64,000 bases of DNA, from assembly GCA_050115495.1 (NCBI GenBank), contig JASFQK010000002.1, positions 148,739 through 212,738 of the forward strand. Reading direction: 5' to 3'. Position 1 is the first letter of the stretch. Every line of letters begins with the position of its first letter. A model generated the notes under the pieces. That model saw only the letters and a program-made list of their open reading frames with translations. It was not told where the DNA came from and did not search any database. A program made the translations under genes and the position numbers. This DNA comes from Phycisphaerae bacterium (GTDB lineage: Bacteria > Planctomycetota > Phycisphaerae > UBA1845 > Fen-1342). Shown here in pieces: positions 27,036 to 40,394 of this stretch.

Positions 27036-28295
27036 TTAAGGGGACGTGGTGCGCCCGCGATCGCCGACGGCGTGGTCGCATTCGGGGCACACGCCGGATG
27101 TGTTGCCGCGCAGGTCGTAGCCGCATTCGGGGCAGCGGCCGCTGATGTTGCCGGTGAGGTTGTAGCCGCACTCACGGCAGACGTTCTTGTGCTTGCGCGG
27201 CAGCCATCGCCGGATGAGCGGGGCGATGGCGAACACGATCAGCGGATACACGAGCAGCAGCGCGGCGACCAGGGAATGCGGCATCGCAATCTGCCGCAGC
27301 TTCATCACGAGAGAACCGCGGAAACTGAGTTCACGCGCGAGGAGCAGTCCCCAGAGATGGGTTTCGCTACGCGCGCACACGTCTTTCAGCCATGACTCTG
27401 ACGCGTCCCAACTCCCTCCAATGCCCCAGAACGTCGGGGCAGGGTCACTGGGGCACCCGCCAGTGCTCCACAAGTGGCCAAGGCTAAGCCATCCAAGGTG
27501 CGATTTCGCATATGCGTAGGTTGTAGGCGACAGGCAGAGAACGTGGCTGCCTCGCCCCGCGCCCCCGGGGCCGAGGGTGAAGCTGCGCTGGCGCAAAACG
27601 ATGACGCCGAGTGCCAGCAGGATCAGCAAAACCGCGACGATCCTGTTGTTCAGGAGACGCGTGTTTCGGCCGGTGACGCGCCGTTCGGGCCGGTGCTCGT
27701 TGACCGCTGCCCCGCATTCGGGACAGCGGCCGCTGACGTTGCCGGTGAGGTTGTAGCCGCACTCGCGGCAACGCGAGGCGTTCGACTGTGCCGGCCTGTT
27801 TCTGCCCACAAACCGAGCTAGGACGTATGCCAGCAGGACCGCGCCGGGACCGACGAAGAGCAGCGGCGCCAATTGCTCCAGCACTTCTGTTGGGGAGTAG
27901 GAGACTGCAGCAGTCTTGTGGCTGAAACTGCCCGTTGAAGCCAGGTACAGGAACTCCGTGCCACAGAGCGTGATCGACAGGACCAGCCCGCTCAGCGCGT
28001 GCAGCCACAACTTCGGCCTGAGGAGTAGTCCGTAGAGGATGATGAACGCCACGGGCACGACCTGCGCCGCCCAGAGCGGCTGCGTGTGGTACGACCACGG
28101 GAAGAGCTGGACCGGGAACCAGTACTTCACATAGAGCGGTGGATAATTGGGGAACAGCCAGCACGCCACCCAATCGAACACCGTCAGCAGCCGCCGGAAC
28201 ACGAACCACGAGCCGAGGCCGGCCGCCAAATGCACGACCGGACACAAACGGGGTTTCCAACGCCGTGTCACGACCCGCGGTGTCATTCGAATCAT
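27036..28295 (-). CDS. Membrane protein with three CxxCGYxLxGxxSGxCPEC zinc-ribbon motifs
   Basis: Multiple TMs; CRECGYNLTGNVSGRCPECG internally; doubled ribbon at the C-terminus. Confidence 0.75.
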   Translation of the reverse strand: MIRMTPRVVTRRWKPRLCPVVHLAAGLGSWFVFRRLLTVFDWVACWLFPNYPPLYVKYWFPVQLFPWSYHTQPLWAAQVVPVAFIILYGLLLRPKLWLHALSGLVLSITLCGTEFLYLASTGSFSHKTAAVSYSPTEVLEQLAPLLFVGPGAVLLAYVLARFVGRNRPAQSNASRCRECGYNLTGNVSGRCPECGAAVNEHRPERRVTGRNTRLLNNRIVAVLLILLALGVIVLRQRSFTLGPGGAGRGSHVLCLSPTTYAYAKSHLGWLSLGHLWSTGGCPSDPAPTFWGIGGSWDASESWLKDVCARSETHLWGLLLARELSFRGSLVMKLRQIAMPHSLVAALLLVYPLIVFAIAPLIRRWLPRKHKNVCRECGYNLTGNISGRCPECGYDLRGNTSGVCPECDHAVGDRGRTTSP

Positions 28296-30141: not shown

Positions 30142-32148
30142 ATGATGACGATGATGTGTGCGGTGCTGATCGGCGCTACGGCGCTCGTCGGATCGCAACC
30201 GCAGGACAAGCCACCTCCGCCCGCCGAGTCCCTGACGGCGGAACAGGTCGTGGCTCACTACGTGGATGCGCTCGGCGGAGCGGAGAAGCTCGCCGCCCGC
30301 AAGACGCTGCGCATGACCTGCCGCATAACCCGGGAGGGCGACCAGGAGACCGCGGAGCTGATCCGCGAGTGGAAACGCCCGGACAAGTTCCGCGCCAGTT
30401 TCACGGTTTCGTTGGCCGGGCGGACGCTGTGCCTGGTGATCGCCTGCGACGGTAAGACCTGGTGGCACATCATGCCGGTGTTCGGCAGCGCCGAACCGCA
30501 GGAAGCGCCGGCGGAGATGGTCGAGGTCTACGACGACGAGGCCGACATCGACGACCCGCTCGCCGTCGCCGCGGCGATGGGGCACAAGGTTGAGCTGATC
30601 GGCCGCGAAGAGCTGGACGGCAAGCCGGTCTACAAGCTCAAGCTCATGCGGAAGGGGGCGGCCGAAGAGGAGTACGACGAATACTACATCGACGCCGAGT
30701 CGTGGCTGCCGGCAAAGGTCGCCGGCGCGCGGCGGGCGATGGGCGCGGTGGTGAGGTTTGAACGGACACTCAGCGATTATCGCCGGGTGGACGGCGTGAT
30801 GGTCGCCCACGTGCAGAAGACGGTGTCCGAGCCGGACAACAGCGTCCAGGAACTGCGCATCGAGAAGGTCGAAACCAACATCGACGTGTCCGACGAGCGC
30901 TTCAGCCTGGCGGCGGCGAAGAAGGCAGCGGAGGCCTCCGCCCCGACGACTGCGCCGGCAGAGTCGGCGAAAGCGGTGACCGACGAACCCGCCGCCCACG
31001 CCCTGTACGACCGTATGATCGCGGCCCTGCGCGCCGCCGACACGCTCGCCTTCGATAGCGCGTACACGTTGAAGCTCGGGGCCATGCCGGGGACGACCTG
31101 CTGGTACAAGGCATGGCTGGCCAAGCCGAACTACTTCCGCCTCGAGGCGACGCACTCGTCGGGCAAGCTCACGGGCGTGCTCGTCGGCGACGGAAGGAAC
31201 TTGTGGGTCTACTGGCCGTCGGGGAGGCCGTATTTCAGCGACGGGGCGACCCCGGAGGATCAGGACACGTACGAAGCCACGCGAGACAAGGTCTACATGT
31301 CCAAGCCCACGCCGCTGGCCCACCACTCGATCGGCCACGAAGTGGCCCTGCTTGGCAGCGGCATAATCATGAACATCCTCGACCTCAGCACGTTCCACGG
31401 CTACACCGACGGCCTCCAACCGCTGCTGGACGGCGTCGCCGGCTGCGGCACCGAGACCTTCGCCGACGAGCCGTGCGACGTGATCAAGCTGAGCTACATG
31501 GACGGTCAGCGGGCCTGGCGGCTGTGGATCTCGCAGCGCGACCACCTGCCCCGCAAGCTGAGCGAGAGGGTCCATGTCGCCCACACCATCCAGGTCGAGG
31601 AGGTCTGGTCGAACATCCGCCTGAACGAACCGATTCCCGACGAGCAGTTCGTCTGGACGCCGCCGGAAGACTGGCAATTGTGGCAGATCCCGCAGACAGA
31701 GCAGGCGTTGGTGCCTGTCGGCGAGCCGGCGCCGGACTTCGAGCTCAAGCTGGCTGAGGGTGGGACGACGAAGCTGTCGGACTATCGCGGGAAGTTCGTC
31801 TGGCTCGTGTTCTGGCGCGTGGGCTGCCCACCGTGCCGGCAGGAGACAGTGTTCCTGCAGAAGCTGCACGAGAAACACGCGGGCAAGGAGTTGGTGGTGC
31901 TGGGCTTCAACAGCGCCGATCGGCGAGACATCGCCCTCGATCTGCTGCGCAAGCAGAAGGTGACGTTCCCCTGCGTCCTGGATTCGTCCACGGACGCAAT
32001 GCAGATGTCGATGATGAAGTACCACGCCAGCGCTGTGCCAACCACGTACATCATCGACCGCGAGGGCAAGGTGCTGATGGCCTGGGTGGGCTTCTCCGAC
32101 GACGACCCGCGGGCCGAGGAGGCGCTGAAAAAGATGGGGCTGGAGTAA
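30142..32148 (+). CDS. Secreted fusion: two LolA-like domains plus TlpA/redoxin domain
   Basis: Signal peptide; 'YVDALGGAEKL...' and 'WLAKPNYFRLE...GDGRNLWVY...IRLNEPIPDEQFVWTPP' LolA-fold signatures; APDF...CPPC...VPTTYIIDREGKV. Confidence 0.78.
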   Translation: MMTMMCAVLIGATALVGSQPQDKPPPPAESLTAEQVVAHYVDALGGAEKLAARKTLRMTCRITREGDQETAELIREWKRPDKFRASFTVSLAGRTLCLVIACDGKTWWHIMPVFGSAEPQEAPAEMVEVYDDEADIDDPLAVAAAMGHKVELIGREELDGKPVYKLKLMRKGAAEEEYDEYYIDAESWLPAKVAGARRAMGAVVRFERTLSDYRRVDGVMVAHVQKTVSEPDNSVQELRIEKVETNIDVSDERFSLAAAKKAAEASAPTTAPAESAKAVTDEPAAHALYDRMIAALRAADTLAFDSAYTLKLGAMPGTTCWYKAWLAKPNYFRLEATHSSGKLTGVLVGDGRNLWVYWPSGRPYFSDGATPEDQDTYEATRDKVYMSKPTPLAHHSIGHEVALLGSGIIMNILDLSTFHGYTDGLQPLLDGVAGCGTETFADEPCDVIKLSYMDGQRAWRLWISQRDHLPRKLSERVHVAHTIQVEEVWSNIRLNEPIPDEQFVWTPPEDWQLWQIPQTEQALVPVGEPAPDFELKLAEGGTTKLSDYRGKFVWLVFWRVGCPPCRQETVFLQKLHEKHAGKELVVLGFNSADRRDIALDLLRKQKVTFPCVLDSSTDAMQMSMMKYHASAVPTTYIIDREGKVLMAWVGFSDDDPRAEEALKKMGLE

Positions 32149-32442
32149 GGGGCGCGCTGCAAAGCCGGCCCGCGCGATCCAGGTCAGACGGCGCGGCAGG
32201 CCAAGGAGGCATTAGATCGCGTGGCGGACGCGAGGCCGTCAGCAGAGTCCCGTGCATCTTCACGTGTTCTGATGGAGAGTGGACGGGACACGATCGGGCC
32301 GGGCGACGCGTGCACGCAGGCAGAAAGAAGGAGGGCGTCGCCGCCTACTCCGCGAAACAGAACGCTCCCTCGTCCTTGCAGAAGACCAGAACGTCCCCCG
32401 TTCCTATCGGAACGCACAACCGTCGATAGAGGTACTCATCGG

Positions 32443-32898
32443 CTACTCCCGGCCGAATAGGTGGCGGAGACGGTCCCAAATGCTCCGTTTGGCGGGAGAC
32501 CGAGACGTCCGTTCCGCATGCTTCGTGTGATCATTGGGCTTCACGGCGTTATGTCGGGCGTAGTGCCGCTCTCTGCACGACGAGTCACAGGCGCGCCCAA
32601 GGCGGATCTGCTCGTCAGTCCATTTTCTTGCCCAACGAACGGTGTCTCGTTTGATCCAGTAGTGGGATCGACAGGGAAAGCTCCAGTTGCCGACGGAGGG
32701 ATCGAGCGAAACGGTTTCACCGTCAAAGATGAGAGTCCAGTCGGTCGGAGTCAGAGGGGTAACCGCCTCGCGGCCGCATCCGCAGCAGCACCTGTGTACT
32801 GCGGTCGCGTATCGGACGGATACATACAAGACGCCCTCGTTCAGTTGATCCGGAATGAAGTCGACGAATTCATGTTTGAGGACGTGGACTCGCCTCAC
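32443..32898 (-). CDS. DUF6527-like Cys/His-rich protein
   Basis: FVDFIP..L..GVLYVS, HRCCCGCG, SLDPSVGNW..PCRSHYWI; GTG overlaps the ThiF stop (GTGA). Confidence 0.8.
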   Translation of the reverse strand: MRRVHVLKHEFVDFIPDQLNEGVLYVSVRYATAVHRCCCGCGREAVTPLTPTDWTLIFDGETVSLDPSVGNWSFPCRSHYWIKRDTVRWARKWTDEQIRLGRACDSSCRERHYARHNAVKPNDHTKHAERTSRSPAKRSIWDRLRHLFGRE

Positions 32899-34073
32899 GC
32901 CTTCTCCTCATTCGTAATCGTGTTTCCGTCGATCGTATAGGTTGTGTGGTGTTCACGTTCCAGGTCGAGGTAGAACCCCCGGAGCTTCTTCCACTTGATC
33001 ACTGCAAGCGAGGCGGCCAGCGAGTTGAGTTCGGCGATCTGGATGTTCGTCGAGTATGCATTGTCTCGCCCGCCGCCGAAAGGAATCCGGTATCTCTCGT
33101 GTACGTGGCCACGAAGTTCAGGTGTGCTCGTCGTGACACGCACAACGCCCAGGAGCTTCTCGTCGGGCCGTAACACTCCAAGCCCCGCGTCGATGAACGG
33201 CGTTCCACGACGTTCGACGTGGTCAATAATCGGTAGCTTCGACTCTGCGTCATCGACACAGAGAAACACGATCGACATATCGTCCAGCAGGTTCACGTTG
33301 GAATATCCTAGTCGACAATCGTGCGGTACGATGCCGCTATGAAGCGCGCCGTACTTGCCGGCGAAGTAGGCGACCTTCTTTGGCTTCGCTCTCAGGTCGT
33401 GGATGGGCGCGGCCCCAGGGGCTCTGAACGCGCTGTGGGTAAAGAAGCAGTCGTCATCGAAGAGGTGGATTGCTCGCACTGGCGTCTTGGCGACCAGATC
33501 GAGGACATATGACCCGGTCCCACCAAGACCGACTATCGCGACGCAGTCGCCCGCCACACGCTCATTGAGGTCGGCGATGCCCGCCCGGCTTGACGCCGTG
33601 TCGACGTACCGAAAGACACTGCCGTCCACGTCGCTGTTGAAGACCGGGAACGGCGTTGCTGATGTAGTCGGATCTATGGCGACCGCCGGCGCGGAGAGGA
33701 TGGCCGCATATGTAGCCATCTTCTCGTAGTGGTCCGCGTATCCGCTTGGCGGCTTACTCGAGAAGGAATGGCTGACCGTGAGGCCATCGCCGATTCTGCG
33801 TGTCTGTGATTGATGCCGGATTCTCTCCAGAGGGTGCCCCTGGTGGTCGCACGGATAGTCTCCGGCAAAGTGCACGACATGTGTGCGCGGCCGCGTGGTT
33901 CTGTCGCCTTGGAGTGTCAGCTCGGAAACGAGCGTACCATACGCTACGTGGCGGTTTCCACTAACGTAAGGAACTCGGTCAACAACCACGTGGCCCGCCC
34001 TGATTGAGACGTCGTAACCCTCGTCGCGGAGTCGTTTGAGATCGGGATTACGACTTATCAGTTGCTGTGACAT
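32895..34073 (-). CDS. E2-like (DUF6791-like) plus ThiF/E1 adenylyltransferase fusion
   Basis: N-domain 'DLKRLRDEGY...VPYV...HFAGDYPCD...FSSKP...Y.D..EK..TY'; ThiF GLGGTGSY, FDDD...HSAFRAPG, CVDD, NIQIAELN. Confidence 0.88.
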   Translation of the reverse strand: MSQQLISRNPDLKRLRDEGYDVSIRAGHVVVDRVPYVSGNRHVAYGTLVSELTLQGDRTTRPRTHVVHFAGDYPCDHQGHPLERIRHQSQTRRIGDGLTVSHSFSSKPPSGYADHYEKMATYAAILSAPAVAIDPTTSATPFPVFNSDVDGSVFRYVDTASSRAGIADLNERVAGDCVAIVGLGGTGSYVLDLVAKTPVRAIHLFDDDCFFTHSAFRAPGAAPIHDLRAKPKKVAYFAGKYGALHSGIVPHDCRLGYSNVNLLDDMSIVFLCVDDAESKLPIIDHVERRGTPFIDAGLGVLRPDEKLLGVVRVTTSTPELRGHVHERYRIPFGGGRDNAYSTNIQIAELNSLAASLAVIKWKKLRGFYLDLEREHHTTYTIDGNTITNEEKA

Positions 34074-34701
34074 TGAAGACCATCCCATTCCTGATGTGAA
34101 CCGACTGGCCTTCGATCAGAGTCCCCTCGGGATTGCAGGGCGGGCCATTTCGGTAGGTCGCGGTGAAGAGCCAGTTGGCGCCCTCCGGTACCGGGTCGAA
34201 CGCCAGCGTGAGTAGTTCCCTGAACGTCAATGTCCTCTGTTCGACCGTTTTCCTGCGGCCGTTGACGATGATCGTGAGCACCCGTTCGGTGTAGAAACGC
34301 TCCAGACCCCGTCGGTCGAGCGAGACTTCCTGACCAGGCTGGAGCAGCAGATCTTCCTGATTGCGCCGCTCCAACCAAACGCGACCGTGGTGACCTACGC
34401 CCGCGATGTGTCTCAGCGTCGACTCGGCGATTGAGTCGGCGCCCCACGGCTGACGCTGGCCGTTGAGTTCGAAGTTGAACAGGCGGTCGGCGCAGAATGT
34501 CAGAAAACGCTCGCGCCCCGGTTCCTGAAGGTCCACCGTCTCCTCGAGGTCAATGTCCTCAAGCTGTCGTCCTTCGCCGAAATGAAGCACAACGTGCTCC
34601 TCCACCGGCGTTCGCCCGGCAAGCTCCAGTAGTTGGCGACCCGTTAGCACGGGGTCGGCAGACTGGTACGTCTGACCGTCCATCGTGAGCGTGTATGCCA
34701 T
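34048..34701 (-). CDS. Multi-ubiquitin domain protein (3 beta-grasp domains)
   Basis: Three ~70-aa units ('LTGRQLLELAG...VDL..PG.ERF', 'LNG...L..RG.ERFYT', 'IIVNGR...LTF.EL..LAF...G.L..GQSV.I.NGMVFNV'); GAGG RBS. Confidence 0.85.
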   Translation of the reverse strand: MAYTLTMDGQTYQSADPVLTGRQLLELAGRTPVEEHVVLHFGEGRQLEDIDLEETVDLQEPGRERFLTFCADRLFNFELNGQRQPWGADSIAESTLRHIAGVGHHGRVWLERRNQEDLLLQPGQEVSLDRRGLERFYTERVLTIIVNGRRKTVEQRTLTFRELLTLAFDPVPEGANWLFTATYRNGPPCNPEGTLIEGQSVHIRNGMVFNVTATDKS

Positions 34702-34812
34702 TCTCGGACCTCACTTTCTCACTTTCGTGATACAAATGTTGACGAATCCGTATATAATGAGTGCCAGAGGAAGGGCCCACGCTGGGCCCTAGAGACGCAA
34801 TCGTCATAGTTC

Positions 34813-34841
34813 TTTATACGTCATCGTCAATGAGGTGTCAA
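34813..34841 (-). promoter_or_regulatory. Sigma70-type promoter for the Ubl operon
   Basis: Minus strand TTGACA (34841-34836), 17 bp spacer, TATAAA (34818-34813). Confidence 0.7.
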
Positions 34842-34843
34842 GG

Positions 34844-35191
34844 ATGTCCGAGAATTTCGCGGATCGGCTGCGCAAGATCCGGCTGGAAAGGGGATTGAGC
34901 CAAACCGACCTCGCCAAGCGGGCGAGGTTTCAGCCCTCCGCGATCTCCCACTTCGAAACACGGACCCGCTCGCCTTCGTTCGACAACCTTCGGCGACTCG
35001 CGGACGCCCTCGGAGTATCGATCGATTACCTGCTCGGACGCCAGTCAGAATCCACTGCGGCTGGGCCAGTGGCCGACCGCCTACACCGCAACTTCGAGAA
35101 GATGAGTTCTTCCGACCAGGAGTTCATTGCAGCGATGGCCGAAGAACTCGCGAAGAAGAATGCAGCTGCGGACAAGGACAGGGGAGCGTAG
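34844..35191 (+). CDS. XRE-family HTH transcriptional regulator (CapH/ImmR/DdrO-like)
   Basis: RLRKIRLERGLSQTDLA...AISHFE...PSFDNLRRLADALGVSIDYLLGR. Confidence 0.93.
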   Translation: MSENFADRLRKIRLERGLSQTDLAKRARFQPSAISHFETRTRSPSFDNLRRLADALGVSIDYLLGRQSESTAAGPVADRLHRNFEKMSSSDQEFIAAMAEELAKKNAAADKDRGA

Positions 35192-35194
35192 CGC

Positions 35195-36028
35195 GTGGGG
35201 AATTCGATCCACTATGAGCAAGGTGAGGCGCAGGCACGCTGTGTGCTGGAGGCAAACGGCCTGACCACACTGCCTGTATGCCCATTCGCGCTCGCAGAGA
35301 AGCACGATATCGTGGTGAGGACACGCAAGAGCGGGGAGCCGGGGGTAACGGGCTTCCTCATGCGCATAGGCCAGGAGTTCGGCGTCTACTACGCCTCGCA
35401 CATCGATAACGACGGGTTTATTCGATTCACGGTCGCACACGAGCTGGGTCACTACTTCATACCCGGTCACCCGCAAGCGCTCTTCCCTAATGGCGACGGC
35501 ATCCACGCGAGCCGGGCCTGGAATCCGACGGGAGATCGATATGAGAAGGAAGCTGACGGGTTCGCTTCCGGTTTGCTCATGCCTCGAGAGCTGTTTGTCG
35601 CGGAGATGCGTGAGCTTCAGAGCGGTTTCGCGGCAATCGAATCGCTGGCATCGACATGTCGTACATCGATTACCTCGACGGCGATTCGCTACGCCCGATT
35701 TGCCGATGATCCGGTCGCGGTCGTCGTGAGCACGGGGGCCCTCATAGACTACTGTTTCATGTCGGATGCGATACGGCGAATGGAGGGCGTGACGTGGATC
35801 GGCAAGGGCGAGAGCCTCCCGCCGCGATGCGAAACCAGGAAATTCAATTCGACGTCATCGAATGTCTCCAGCGGGAGGAAAGCGTATGGATGGGCCTCGA
35901 TGGACGATTGGTTCGAGGGTGCCCCACAGGTCGAGATGAAGGAGGACGTCGTCGGTCTCGGTTCGTACGGCAAGACTCTCACCGTGCTATTCACGGACCA
36001 GGCAATTGACGATGACGAGATAGACTGA
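35195..36028 (+). CDS. ImmA/IrrE-family zinc metallopeptidase (CapP-like)
   Basis: RFTVAHELGHY (HExxH), EKEADGFASGLLMP, HTH-like 'LASTCRTSITSTAIRY', C-terminal GAF-like region. Confidence 0.92.
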   Translation: MGNSIHYEQGEAQARCVLEANGLTTLPVCPFALAEKHDIVVRTRKSGEPGVTGFLMRIGQEFGVYYASHIDNDGFIRFTVAHELGHYFIPGHPQALFPNGDGIHASRAWNPTGDRYEKEADGFASGLLMPRELFVAEMRELQSGFAAIESLASTCRTSITSTAIRYARFADDPVAVVVSTGALIDYCFMSDAIRRMEGVTWIGKGESLPPRCETRKFNSTSSNVSSGRKAYGWASMDDWFEGAPQVEMKEDVVGLGSYGKTLTVLFTDQAIDDDEID

Positions 36029-36175
36029 GATGCCGGTTTGGTTTGCGTAGCAGAAGAGGGCAACGAGCCCACGGCCCGAGCGCCCGAAAGCGCAAGAAGC
36101 GACCCGCTGCCGCGTCGCCGCGACAGCGGGTCGGTGTCTCGTGTGCGGACGGTGCGTCCCCGGGCCGCGATGCGC

Positions 36176-37114
36176 TTAGCGTCGCCGCAGCAGCGTCAGC
36201 GCAGCGCCGCACAGGACCATCAGGCCGCTGGTCGGCTCGGGAATGAACATGAGCCCGCGCGGCTCGGAGAGAACGCCGCCGCCGGGAATGAACACGTCGA
36301 TGAACTCGCCGGTCGTGGCGTCGTAGCGCTCGACCGAGCGCTGCGTAATGTCCGTGGTCCACGTGCAGGCGTAGAGCTTGCCGTCCGGGCCGAACTCGAT
36401 GTGGGACAGCGGGGCCTCGGTCGTCAGGAACGTATCCAGGTGCTCACCGGTGGCCCAGTCGTAACGCTCGATCTTCTTCGTGGTGTAGTCCGAGATGTAC
36501 AGCATCCCGTCCGGGCCGAAGTCCAGCGACATCGGGTAGTCCATCTCCGTGATGGGCGCGAAGTCACGCACGAGCGTGCGCGTCTCGGGATCCCACACCT
36601 GGACTTTGTTGCCGCTGCTGACGCTGGTGGTCACGTAGATCATCCCGTCCGGGCCGAAACGGAAGTCATGCGGATACCGCATCGTCGGGTTGCCGAAGTC
36701 GTGGACGAAGCTGCCCGTGTCTGCGTTGAAGACGCTGATGCGGCGGGTGTCGTTCGCGGCCGCGTACAGCTTGTCGTCGTGGAAGATGATCGTGACGATC
36801 TCTTCCATGTTGCTGTGCTCCGCGAAGTTGCCGAGATACTCGCCGGTCGGCCAGTCGAAACGCGTCACGCGCGAGGAGCCGAAGTTGCCGACGTAGATGT
36901 CGCCGTCGGGCCCCTGGGTGACGTCGACCGGGCTACTGAGGCCGGTGCCGGTCGCGAAGGTGCCCAGGAAGTCACCCGTTTCGAGGTCGTAGCGCAAGAT
37001 GCTGTTGTTGGCCCGGCTGGTGACGAGCACCTCGGTTGGTGACGCCAGCGCCACACCGGCCCCGATGGCCAGCACGGCCAGGATACCCACTGCAATTCTG
37101 CCTCCGGTTCGCAT
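36176..37114 (-). CDS. PEP-CTERM sorted beta-propeller (NHL/Vgb-like repeats) protein
   Basis: Signal peptide; repeated FGPDG..Y and RYD..TGEF; C-terminal IPEP-TM-RRR. Confidence 0.9.
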   Translation of the reverse strand: MRTGGRIAVGILAVLAIGAGVALASPTEVLVTSRANNSILRYDLETGDFLGTFATGTGLSSPVDVTQGPDGDIYVGNFGSSRVTRFDWPTGEYLGNFAEHSNMEEIVTIIFHDDKLYAAANDTRRISVFNADTGSFVHDFGNPTMRYPHDFRFGPDGMIYVTTSVSSGNKVQVWDPETRTLVRDFAPITEMDYPMSLDFGPDGMLYISDYTTKKIERYDWATGEHLDTFLTTEAPLSHIEFGPDGKLYACTWTTDITQRSVERYDATTGEFIDVFIPGGGVLSEPRGLMFIPEPTSGLMVLCGAALTLLRRR

Positions 37115-37491: not shown

Positions 37492-37558
37492 GATGCGACT
37501 TGTTCCGGATCGTGAAATCGAATATCATCCGGTGCATCGGCGGTGTTGGGAGAGATCC

Positions 37559-38854
37559 ATGGCGACCACAAGCTCAAAGGCCCCGGCTTTCGAAGTCGCC
37601 GCCAATCAGATCCTGTTCGAGCTGCGACAGGCGTTCGTGGTGCTCATGGACCAGGCCGGCCTGGCGGGCATCAAGCCACTGCCTCTTGCGCGCAAACTTG
37701 GTATTGATAAGAGCTTAGCTTGGAAGATCCACCGAGTGGTCTACCCCCAGACATCGATGGACGTGGTTCGTCATCTTCCCGGGTCGGCGAGCATTCGGCG
37801 GTTTGTCGACGCCGTCCGCGCGAAACGCGCCAGCGATTTCGACCAGGCCCAGATCGAGCGGGCGATCTCCGGGCTGGAGCAGATCATTCGGACCCATTGT
37901 GGCGATCGGGCCACGTTCCAGATGATGATGAACAGTGTCGCCGACGAGCCGTCGGAGGAAGTCGCCGAGCAGCATCGGCAGGAACTGGTGCGGGGGGCGA
38001 GCTATGTTTGGGGGGCACATGCGCGGGTCACGATGCGGGCGGACTTTGTCGCGCCGTCGGCGACGCCGGGCATGGTGGACATCGCGTCCGTACGTGGCCT
38101 GGTGGATCTCGTGCGTTATCGGCCGAAGGTTCCGTGGGTGCTGTCGCACATGGGAGCGGTGGATAACGACATGCGCCGCCGATCGGAGCCGTCGCGGCAG
38201 GCGATCGACCCTTCGCAGCGGTGCGAGGAGGCGGCTCCGCTGCTGACGGAGTTCTGCTCGAAACCGCCGCCGGTGACGCGCCGTGTCCCGAGCACGCCGG
38301 GTTTGCTTCAGGACGAGCTGGTCGAGGAGCGGATGGGGACGACCGGGCTGGTCACGTGCATGACTGGGGAGCGCGTGCTGGCGGTTACGTCGCGATACCG
38401 CGATGAGCACAACGACAACACGCGGCACCGGGCGATTCTGCGGACGCCGAGCGACCTGCTGCTCTTCGACTTGTACGTACACCGTGATCTGAAGAGCGCG
38501 ATGAACCCGCAGTTCGTGCTCTACAGCAGCCTGGAAACCGGGCCGATGGTGCCGGCTACGGCTTTCGAGCGCTACCACCTGCCGGCGGCGGAGACGGTGA
38601 AGAGCCTCGGTGCGTTTCCGCCGATGACCGCGACGCCGGATGTGCCGCGCTATGCCGACATGACGGCGTACGTGTTTGAGCGCTGCGGCTGGCAGGCCGC
38701 GGACTTCGCCGGCTTCCGGTTGCAGATGACGTATCCCCCGCTTCCGGCGGTGGCGGTGCTGCAATGGCCGCTGGCGGAGCGGCCCGACCTGTCCGGATCA
38801 TCAGCAGGGTCTGAGGGGCCTGATTCACCGCCGCCGGGATTCGTTCCCCGCTGA
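37559..38854 (+). CDS. Hypothetical protein with N-terminal HTH-like segment (possible regulator)
   Basis: 'PLPLARKLGIDKSLAWKIHR' resembles an HTH; GGGAGAG RBS; remainder unrecognised. Confidence 0.65.
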   Translation: MATTSSKAPAFEVAANQILFELRQAFVVLMDQAGLAGIKPLPLARKLGIDKSLAWKIHRVVYPQTSMDVVRHLPGSASIRRFVDAVRAKRASDFDQAQIERAISGLEQIIRTHCGDRATFQMMMNSVADEPSEEVAEQHRQELVRGASYVWGAHARVTMRADFVAPSATPGMVDIASVRGLVDLVRYRPKVPWVLSHMGAVDNDMRRRSEPSRQAIDPSQRCEEAAPLLTEFCSKPPPVTRRVPSTPGLLQDELVEERMGTTGLVTCMTGERVLAVTSRYRDEHNDNTRHRAILRTPSDLLLFDLYVHRDLKSAMNPQFVLYSSLETGPMVPATAFERYHLPAAETVKSLGAFPPMTATPDVPRYADMTAYVFERCGWQAADFAGFRLQMTYPPLPAVAVLQWPLAERPDLSGSSAGSEGPDSPPPGFVPR

Positions 38855-39534: not shown

Positions 39535-39939
39535 TCAGATCTCCCAGCCGCACTGGGGACAGCGCGGCTCGGTCAGGCGGGCCAGCGTGTGCCGGCAACG
39601 CGGACAGCGAAGGCGTCCGCTGCCGTAGACGCCGTCCGTCAGTGTCAGCCAGTGATAGACAAGCAGGGTCACGAGAAACGGCGGGATCGTCATTACGATC
39701 AGCGCAAGCTCGATGCGGCCGAGGGCTCCCATCAAGTAATACGGCAGCCGCGTCTGCCGGATGACCAGCCAGTAGGCGACGAGCGCGACGGCGAAGACCG
39801 GCAACGTGGCGATGAGGCGCAGCGGCCAGGCGATTCTCCGGCGGCTCTGCTGAACCCAGCCGCAGGCGGTGCATTGGCTGCGCCGCCTTCGCCGTCGCAA
39901 GGCCCCGCCGCAGGATGGACACTGCTCCGCAGGCTTCAT
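39535..39939 (-). CDS. Small membrane protein with N- and C-terminal zinc ribbons
   Basis: CPSCGG...CTACG, 2 TMs, CPRCRHTL..LTEPRCPQCG. Confidence 0.75.
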   Translation of the reverse strand: MKPAEQCPSCGGALRRRRRRSQCTACGWVQQSRRRIAWPLRLIATLPVFAVALVAYWLVIRQTRLPYYLMGALGRIELALIVMTIPPFLVTLLVYHWLTLTDGVYGSGRLRCPRCRHTLARLTEPRCPQCGWEI

Positions 39940-39989
39940 CGCGTCGCCCTCTCTGGAACACCGCACCGCCGGCGGCGAGCGTTGCACGG

Positions 39990-40394
39990 TCAAATCACCC
40001 AGCCACACTCTGGACAGCGCGGTTCGGTCAAGTGCATCAGCAGATGGCCGCAGCGCGGGCAGTGCAGCCGCCCGTCACCATGGGTTTCATCAAAGAACGT
40101 CAGCCAGTGATATACGAGGACTCCCAGCAGCAGCGGCAGGATCGCCATCGCCGCGAAGAAGGGCTCGGCGCGCATGCCGAAGAACCACGCCGGATCGGGC
40201 CACGGGATACACTCGAACGCGCAATACACCGCCCGGTAGCCGCCGATGAAGACGAGCAAGGCCGCGATGCAGCGCAGCGGCCACGGTGCCCGTCGCCGAA
40301 TCCTCAGCACGCGGCCGCAGGAACGGCAGCGGTTGTGTCGCCACCGCCGTTGCAGCACGCCAGCACAATCCGGGCACTGTTCCGGCGAGAACAT
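39990..40394 (-). CDS. Small double zinc-ribbon membrane protein (tandem paralog of 39535..39939)
   Basis: CPDCAG...CRSCG, 2 TMs, CPRCGHLL..LTEPRCPECG. Confidence 0.75.
   Translation of the reverse strand: MFSPEQCPDCAGVLQRRWRHNRCRSCGRVLRIRRRAPWPLRCIAALLVFIGGYRAVYCAFECIPWPDPAWFFGMRAEPFFAAMAILPLLLGVLVYHWLTFFDETHGDGRLHCPRCGHLLMHLTEPRCPECGWVI

Follow-up and report, generated by a model that had tools for sequence, protein, structure and literature searches.

Bub operons of the Type II family were described in 2024 by Ye, Gong, Chambers and Corbett (bioRxiv 10.1101/2024.11.21.623953; Ye et al., 2024 below), with structures following in the PDB in 2025 (release date 2025-09-24), and are also the subject of a companion preprint (10.1101/2024.11.21.623966). 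Bub systems work without catalytic cysteines and through oxyester intermediates: the crossover loop of the E1 carries an invariant Tyr (Y342 of BubBD from Escherichia coli ZDHYS365), in the E2 an invariant Ser is joined by Lys and His (S106 and K108 of the same protein), and the DUF6527 protein BubE is a Ser–His protease with a C4 zinc site that is predicted to bind the C-terminus of the ubiquitin-like protein (Ubl) BubA (Ye et al., 2024). When BubA and BubBD from E. coli were combined with ATP, a BubA–BubA conjugate was formed, and this product was lost with the R219A, Y342F or S106A variants (Ye et al., 2024). The present analysis concerns a locus in the genome of a Phycisphaerae bacterium, contained in a stretch of 64,000 nucleotides of contig JASFQK010000002.1 (positions 148,739–212,738; assembly GCA_050115495.1), referred to in its entirety as the window. 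Open reading frame (ORF) analysis of the window revealed three head-to-tail genes on the minus strand, bubA, bubBD and bubE, all with open frames, and the locus is a complete Type II Bub operon, with divergently oriented capH/capP regulators.

The mechanism proposed here is drawn from homology to the E. coli ZDHYS365 system. On this basis, it is very likely that the operon is a Type II Bub operon operating by a cysteine-free oxyester relay, in which the C-terminal Ser217 of BubA is the normal donor end. The E. coli operon contains the same three genes in the same order; its BubA is built from three β-grasp domains and also ends in TDKS, and S106, K108, R219 and Y342 of its BubBD correspond to S105, K107, R217 and Y340 here. 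Like the E. coli operon, the present locus has no JAB peptidase: there is no JAB-family protein among the Pfam matches of the five genes at 32443–36028, the rest of the window not having been scanned for JAB. CapH and CapP accompany about a third of Bub operons (~31%; Ye et al., 2024). The copy described here is only a distant sequence relative of the E. coli operon and resides in a high-GC genome, but there is no difference in kind between the two. The operon and its cysteine-free chemistry have already been published, and the locus, an ordinary Type II Bub member, adds little as an operon. Its analysis nevertheless brought out two family-wide regularities, namely that Type II BubA invariably has Ser at its donor end and that bubA and bubBD always overlap by 26 nucleotides. 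The invariant Ser bears on how a ThiF-type E1 handles a Ubl terminus other than Gly, and the overlap points to an obligatory translational coupling of tag and enzyme.

The Type I Bub operon of Citrobacter sp. RHBSTW-00271 (BubAB, BubCD and BubE; PDB entries 9ea4, 9ea8, 9eae and 9eav) shares with the present locus the E1 fold with its crossover-loop Tyr, the BubB-type E2 fold with a catalytic Ser, the DUF6527 protease and the oxyester logic. The two differ in the delivery of the tag. In Type I operons Ubl and E2 form one fusion protein, from which a JAB domain frees the Ubl after a conserved Gly, whereas here the Ubl is a stand-alone, unprocessed protein ending in Ser and it is the E1 that is fused to the E2.

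Other systems are more remote. The bacterial ISG15-like (Bil) and eukaryotic E1–E2 cascades also combine a β-grasp tag, a ThiF-type domain and a UBC-like E2, but their tag ends in Gly and is carried as a thioester on a Cys of the E1 and of the E2; neither the crossover-loop Cys nor the Gly-ended Ubl of such canonical thioester cascades is found here, the tag ending in Ser and the crossover region being free of Cys. MccB and PaaA are fold neighbours of the E1 domain of BubBD and indicate that residues bearing a side chain can fit ThiF-type pockets; the residue adenylated by MccB is a C-terminal Asn. Their substrates are, however, short peptides rather than a β-grasp protein, and neither an E2 nor conjugation to proteins is involved. 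Cap2 of the cyclic oligonucleotide-based antiphage signalling systems (CBASS) uses Cys thioesters. In CBASS Cap2/Cap3, Cap2 is an E2–E1 fusion like BubBD, although its E2 is only a weak fold match (7to3_A, Z 4.9), and CBASS Cap2 and the present locus both associate with CapH/CapP. In contrast to this locus, Cap2 systems include a JAB peptidase but lack a gene for a Ubl. What Cap2 conjugates is the C-terminus of the cGAS/DncV-like nucleotidyltransferase (CD-NTase; Ye et al., 2024).

The serine end of BubA and the bubA–bubBD overlap

BubA is composed of three β-grasp (Multi_ubiq) repeats, and its residues 15–217 align with residues 18–222 of E. coli ZDHYS365 BubA (PDB 9cd2), an alignment that extends to the final residue of each protein, both proteins ending in TDKS. 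The C-terminus reads ...NGMVFNVTATDKS, the same end being given as ...HIRNGMVFNVTATDKS* and NVTATDKS. As stated in a preliminary description of this DNA, no Gly follows the last β-strand: the last Gly of the protein, G206, lies ahead of it.

In an earlier sample, 97 of the 120 BubA homologues listed end in [ST]xT[DN][KRQN]S (TDKS in 91), the other 23 being 18 Ubl–E2 fusions (PF14462), two Gly-ended stand-alone Ubls (...TSAG) and three fragments or other sequences. The junction of the Type I-like Ubl–E2 fusions has the form ...TxAG, in agreement with the Gly published for Type I BubA. Since the search for BubA homologues picks sequences by shared five-residue words and may therefore favour the tail itself, the count was repeated on loci selected by BubBD only. 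These amounted to 87 (two loci from genome contigs, the present locus, four loci from the sample of the phylum and 80 from metagenomes), three of which were left out of the tail counts because BubBD lies at a contig edge.

The terminal residue of BubA is Ser in all 84 remaining loci, with zero entropy. Homologues ending mostly in Gly, which the preliminary description had named as the mark of a degenerate copy, are therefore not what was found. Upstream of this residue the tail is more permissive: position −3 is almost fixed (T 82, A 2), while position −2 (D 49, V 14, N 11, G 5, others 5) and position −1 (K 57, Q 19, R 8) vary. As position −1 is not invariant, a penultimate Lys is unlikely to be required for the chain formation or cyclization that had been envisaged for it. 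Taken together, the tails suggest that a terminal Ser is what Type II BubA normally and invariably has as its donor end, and that it is not a degenerate Gly. In Type II operons, which lack a JAB peptidase, the reactive end of BubA is fixed directly by the stop codon.

The region encoding this tail is read twice. In each of the 84 loci with upstream sequence bubA overlaps bubBD by exactly 26 nucleotides, the ATG of bubBD lying inside the Asn-Val codons of the BubA tail, so that eight codons are read in two frames. An alternative explanation for the invariant Ser is that it is kept only by the nucleotide constraint of this overlap and not by the chemistry of BubA; the constancy of the overlap is in keeping with such a constraint, as is the conservation, in the other frame, of M1, S2, L5 and I6 of BubBD. 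The terminal Ser is, however, written with five different codons (TCG 52, TCT 17, TCA 10, TCC 2 and AGC 1, in 82 loci), and the bubA stop is TAG in 52 and TAA in 30 of these loci and never TGA. The residues of BubBD encoded opposite vary with them, residue 8 being R in 54, L in 17, H in 10, P in two and A in one of the 84 loci and residue 9 being S in 54 and N in 30, and both are passengers, of the wobble base of the Ser codon and of the choice between TAG and TAA, respectively. Since five Ser codons are in use, BubBD residues 8 and 9 behave as passengers and the entropy of the Ser is zero, selection is likely to act on the BubA Ser, and it is very unlikely that the overlap alone maintains it. 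The bubBD stop overlaps the GTG start of bubE by a further four nucleotides (GTGA) and, together with the 26-nucleotide overlap, this arrangement suggests translational coupling. Neither the Ser terminus nor the 26-nucleotide overlap is stated in the accessible parts of the two 2024 preprints and their legends, from which the peer-reviewed version may differ; within the later literature, as far as accessible, the only sources on Bub or its Ser terminus were these two preprints, together with papers on CapK/CapS in which Bub operons are mentioned.

It could also be envisaged that the tail is processed first, for example through removal of S or K-S by BubE or BubBD, and that adenylation falls on a residue other than this Ser. 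BubE is indeed a peptidase predicted to bind the C-terminus of BubA, and Type I BubA needs cleavage after Gly. On the other hand, the E. coli reaction held only BubA, BubBD and ATP, and because no peptidase was present it is a Ser-ended BubA that serves as the substrate. Moreover, no tail Gly was reported for any of the 84 loci (the five with Gly at position −2 are those counted above), and positions −1 and −2 vary while the Ser does not. Prior trimming of the tail is accordingly considered very improbable.

Retaining unprocessed BubA as the donor, it is conceivable, although we would not put it at even chances, that the terminal Ser is not just a tolerated substitute for Gly and that its side chain is itself obligatory, either because it is read by the adenylation pocket of BubBD and by BubE, or because the neighbouring hydroxyl activates a sluggish oxyester relay. 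If so, Type II Bub would be the first β-grasp conjugation system with an obligate Ser-carboxylate donor.

One of the 84 loci (L077) departs from the usual layout: within about 60 nucleotides upstream of bubBD, bubA is reduced to about its last 20 codons (...GASVEVKDGMIFDVSATGQS*) and is preceded by AT-rich, foreign-looking DNA, with bubBD intact.

Catalytic residues of BubBD and BubE

The bubBD ORF (34088–32895, minus strand) encodes 397 residues from its first ATG. Because the alignments of 150 diverse homologues begin at query residue 6 and an ATG is found there in 80 of 82 loci, M6 (34073) is taken as the likely true start, giving a protein of 392 residues, and residue numbers (C75, S105, Y340 and so forth) are counted from it. 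BubBD consists of an E2 domain (residues ~1–135) and a ThiF-type adenylation domain (~160–392). The public gene call for this protein (P0124) comprises 274 residues, 69% of the ORF 32895–34088, so that the deposited annotation probably lacks the E2 domain.

A full-length AlphaFold2 model of BubBD, built from 141 sequences, has a predicted local distance difference test (pLDDT) value of 94.4, and its best Foldseek matches, through the E1 part, are Citrobacter BubCD structures (E ~3e-15), followed by UBA5, MccB, PaaA, ThiF and MoeB. For a model of the E2 domain only (pLDDT 92.5), Foldseek returned no match at E 0.001 or better. Alignment of the same model with 48,161 chains using VIA-align placed BubB (9eav_D) first, with Z 9.0 and 119 of 128 residues aligned at a root-mean-square deviation of 3.6; the second-ranked entry reaches Z 5.7, and E2, UEV and RWD folds, as well as Cap2, appear at Z 4–5. 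When PDB sequences were searched using the profile of BubBD, BubCD was recovered through the E1 domain but BubB was not.

Residue conservation was evaluated in an alignment of 151 sequences, BubBD and 150 representatives of 50%-identity clusters (Table 1). The Cys residues of BubBD occupy ORF positions 80, 182, 214, 258 and 277, the last being that of the FLCVDD motif (C272 counted from M6). The final 120 residues (273–392) contain neither Cys nor a CxxC motif, and nowhere beyond residue 272 does an alignment column reach 20% Cys among the 151 sequences. The E1 therefore has no crossover-loop Cys, as had been recognized in the preliminary description, and its absence is a family trait rather than a product of chance or decay. 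That description had also envisaged direct passage of the adenylated tag, with no nucleophile on the E1, which does not hold in view of Y340, the crossover-loop Tyr equivalent to the published E. coli Y342 and essentially invariant among the representatives. In the E2 domain, S105 and K107 are the counterparts of E. coli S106 and K108, and H65 presumably is the His of the published E2 site.

The E2 domain does keep a Cys, that of HFAGDYPCD (C75), as had been observed, and on this basis a route had been suggested in which the adenylated, Ser-ended Ubl would pass to a thioester on C75 or on a Cys of the DUF6527 protein. C75 adjoins the nearly invariant P74 and G71 and is conserved in 118 of 120 close homologues, which favours such a route. 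Across the 151 sequences, however, the position is occupied by Cys in 108, H in 18, R in six, Y in six, S in four, F in four and other residues in five, and since C75 can be replaced by His, Arg or Phe it is unlikely to be an obligatory nucleophile. The 43 replacements contrast with the near invariance of S105 and Y340, whose E. coli equivalents cannot be altered to Ala and Phe, respectively, without loss of product. Four representatives (P0242, P0256, P0263 and P0316) have Cys in place of S105; Y340 and C75 are kept in all four, and K107 is absent from three. They may represent natural variants in which the E2 works through a thioester and, in favour of the thioester route, show that a thiol can serve in this fold; at the same time, because the four non-Ser representatives all have Cys there and keep Y340, position 105 fits the role of nucleophile.

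The Cys residues of the DUF6527 protein fare no better as acceptors. In BubE, a predicted DUF6527 protease, C37, C39, C41 and C76 and the pair S68/H79 match, in a +3 register, C34, C36, C38 and C73 and S65/H76 of the E. coli protein, that is to say the published C4 zinc site and the Ser–His dyad to which the peptidase activity is due. The motif C.C.C...S...C..H follows BubBD in 76 of 84 loci, and in four more an ORF with C.C.C is cut short. A thioester on C75 or on BubE is thus a very doubtful route. The preliminary description was right in that the chemistry is non-canonical, with a Ser-ended Ubl and an E1 without a catalytic Cys, although this has already been published for Type II Bub; the Cys acceptors, the missing E1 nucleophile and the role of the penultimate Lys are the parts that were not borne out. 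C75, kept in 72% of diverse BubBD, could instead provide the E2 site with a thiol that has an auxiliary role or senses redox state.

In the oxyester relay favoured here, a BubBD dimer would adenylate the α-carboxylate of Ser217 of unprocessed BubA, with participation of R217 and the GxGGxG ATP site, and Tyr340 of the crossover loop would receive the tag as an oxyester. Next, Ser105 in the fused E2 domain, where K107 and H65 flank it, would take over the tag, which would finally be transferred to the amine of a target Lys. BubE, as a zinc-stabilized Ser68–His79 protease, would take the tag off, and CapH would repress the operon until cleaved by CapP after DNA damage or infection.

The association of Ubl and E1, for which structure prediction had been proposed, was modelled with two copies of the E1 domain, BubA residues 140–217, ATP and Mg. 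The median score was 0.55 (runs of 0.45, 0.55 and 0.81) and the best of three controls scored 0.00; the runs share at least 66% of contacts and the partner has a pLDDT of at least 80, the score carrying no information on the position of Ser217. Among solved complexes, 116 of 157 reach the mark applied to this score, as do two of 215 mismatches, those reaching it at 0.60 or under being only 18 of the 157 solved complexes and both mismatches. The prediction lends weak support to an E1–BubA complex and, as a similar complex (9ea8) has been solved, the pass may reflect memory.

Several points weigh against the relay as drawn. All of its catalytic steps are read across to this copy from the E. coli and Citrobacter relatives, in which the Tyr and Ser oxyesters are backed by mutants and models and were not trapped directly, and the K108 mutant of E. 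coli BubBD still conjugates, this Lys being dispensable (Ye et al., 2024). None of the Bub operons tested in E. coli gave phage protection (Ye et al., 2024). In addition, the near constancy of C75 among close homologues leaves room for a lineage-specific role of this residue.

That the locus is a decayed, inactive remnant, for which no support was found other than the short public gene call for BubBD, is the least probable explanation of all, as the three frames are open, the catalytic and zinc residues are all present and both overlaps are kept. A degenerate copy was likewise considered and rejected, all catalytic residues being present and the Ser end being common to the homologues.

Regulatory genes, genomic context and distribution

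The positions of the genes, the overlap, the intergenic region and the codons of the residues discussed above are collected in Table 1.

Table 1. Genes, intergenic elements and key codons of the Bub locus (positions in the window; BubBD residues counted from M6; unless stated otherwise, conservation refers to the 151 aligned BubBD sequences)
Feature	Position	Strand	Supporting match or conservation
bubA, ubiquitin-like protein, 217 residues	34048..34701	-	Pfam PF14452 E 3.2e-46, 3 stretches; PDB 9cd2 E 1e-36
bubBD, E2–E1 fusion, 392 residues from M6	32895..34073	-	DUF6791 E 3.5e-57; ThiF E 2.2e-08
bubE, DUF6527 protein, 151 residues, GTG start	32443..32898	-	Pfam PF20137 E 3.3e-25
capH-like helix–turn–helix (HTH) repressor, 118 residues	34835..35191	+	PADLOC capH E 7.4e-23; Pfam HTH_3 E 8e-17
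capP-like M78/ImmA metallopeptidase, 277 residues	35195..36028	+	PADLOC capP E 1.1e-54; Pfam Peptidase_M78 E 2.4e-10
bubA/bubBD overlap, 26 nucleotides	34048..34073	-	bubA stop 26 nucleotides inside bubBD in 84/84 loci
Divergent intergenic region, candidate operator/promoter	34702..34834	.	Inverted repeats
BubA S217 codon	34053..34051	-	
BubA K216 codon	34056..34054	-	
BubBD S105 codon, putative E2 nucleophile (E. coli S106)	33759..33761	-	Ser 147, Cys 4 of 151
BubBD K107 codon (E. coli K108)	33755..33753	-	134/151
BubBD H65 codon	33881..33879	-	151/151
BubBD R217 codon, adenylation-site Arg (E. coli R219)	33423..33425	-	151/151
BubBD Y340 codon, putative E1 crossover-loop nucleophile (E. coli Y342)	33054..33056	-	Tyr 149/151, 2 gaps
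BubBD C75 codon, in GDYPCD	33849..33851	-	118/120 close homologues; 108/151 diverse
BubE S68 codon	32697..32695	-	
BubE H79 codon	32664..32662	-	

Divergently from bubA, a capH-like gene is followed by a capP-like gene, the PADLOC matches spanning positions 3–102 of 103 and 5–241 of 242 of the respective profiles. A CapP-like gene is found in 10 of the 49 loci with at least 2500 nucleotides of upstream sequence. The region between bubA and capH contains an inverted repeat, TTGACGAATCCGTATA, in which 34739–34754 pairs with 34815–34830 (81%), with a related third copy at 34790–34806, as well as a palindrome, AGGGCCCA/TGGGCCCT, in which 34772–34779 pairs with 34783–34790 (100%). These intergenic inverted repeats are candidate CapH operators. 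No σ70-like promoter was found in a scan of 32200–36300.

The GC fraction is 0.59–0.60 over 32001–36000, compared with 0.64–0.70 in the neighbouring 2-kb bins, which fits a small acquired island of lower GC composed of the five genes. There are no tRNA genes in the window according to ARAGORN, direct repeats bracketing 32.4–36.0 kb were not convincing and no integrase was seen; the island is thus not marked by a tRNA gene or by bracketing repeats. BubBD occurs in five of 401 sampled genomes of the phylum, the present genome included, and on 126 of 72,556 plasmid records, from Acinetobacter, Rhizobium, Ralstonia and others, none of the plasmid copies exceeding 56% identity to the protein described here.

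Three further observations concern the surroundings of the island. A 453-residue ORF beside it (37493–38854, plus strand) has no Pfam or PADLOC match. A 312-residue NHL/β-propeller repeat protein (36176–37114, minus strand) ends in ...IPEPTSGLMVLCGAALTLLRRR, a tail that we take to resemble a PEP-CTERM sorting tail. Finally, membrane proteins encoded at 27036–28295, 39535–40008 and 39990–40394, all on the minus strand, contain repeated zinc-ribbon-like motifs of the form C-x-E-C-G-Y-x-L-x-G-N-x-S-G-x-C-P-E-C-G and look like a paralogous family.

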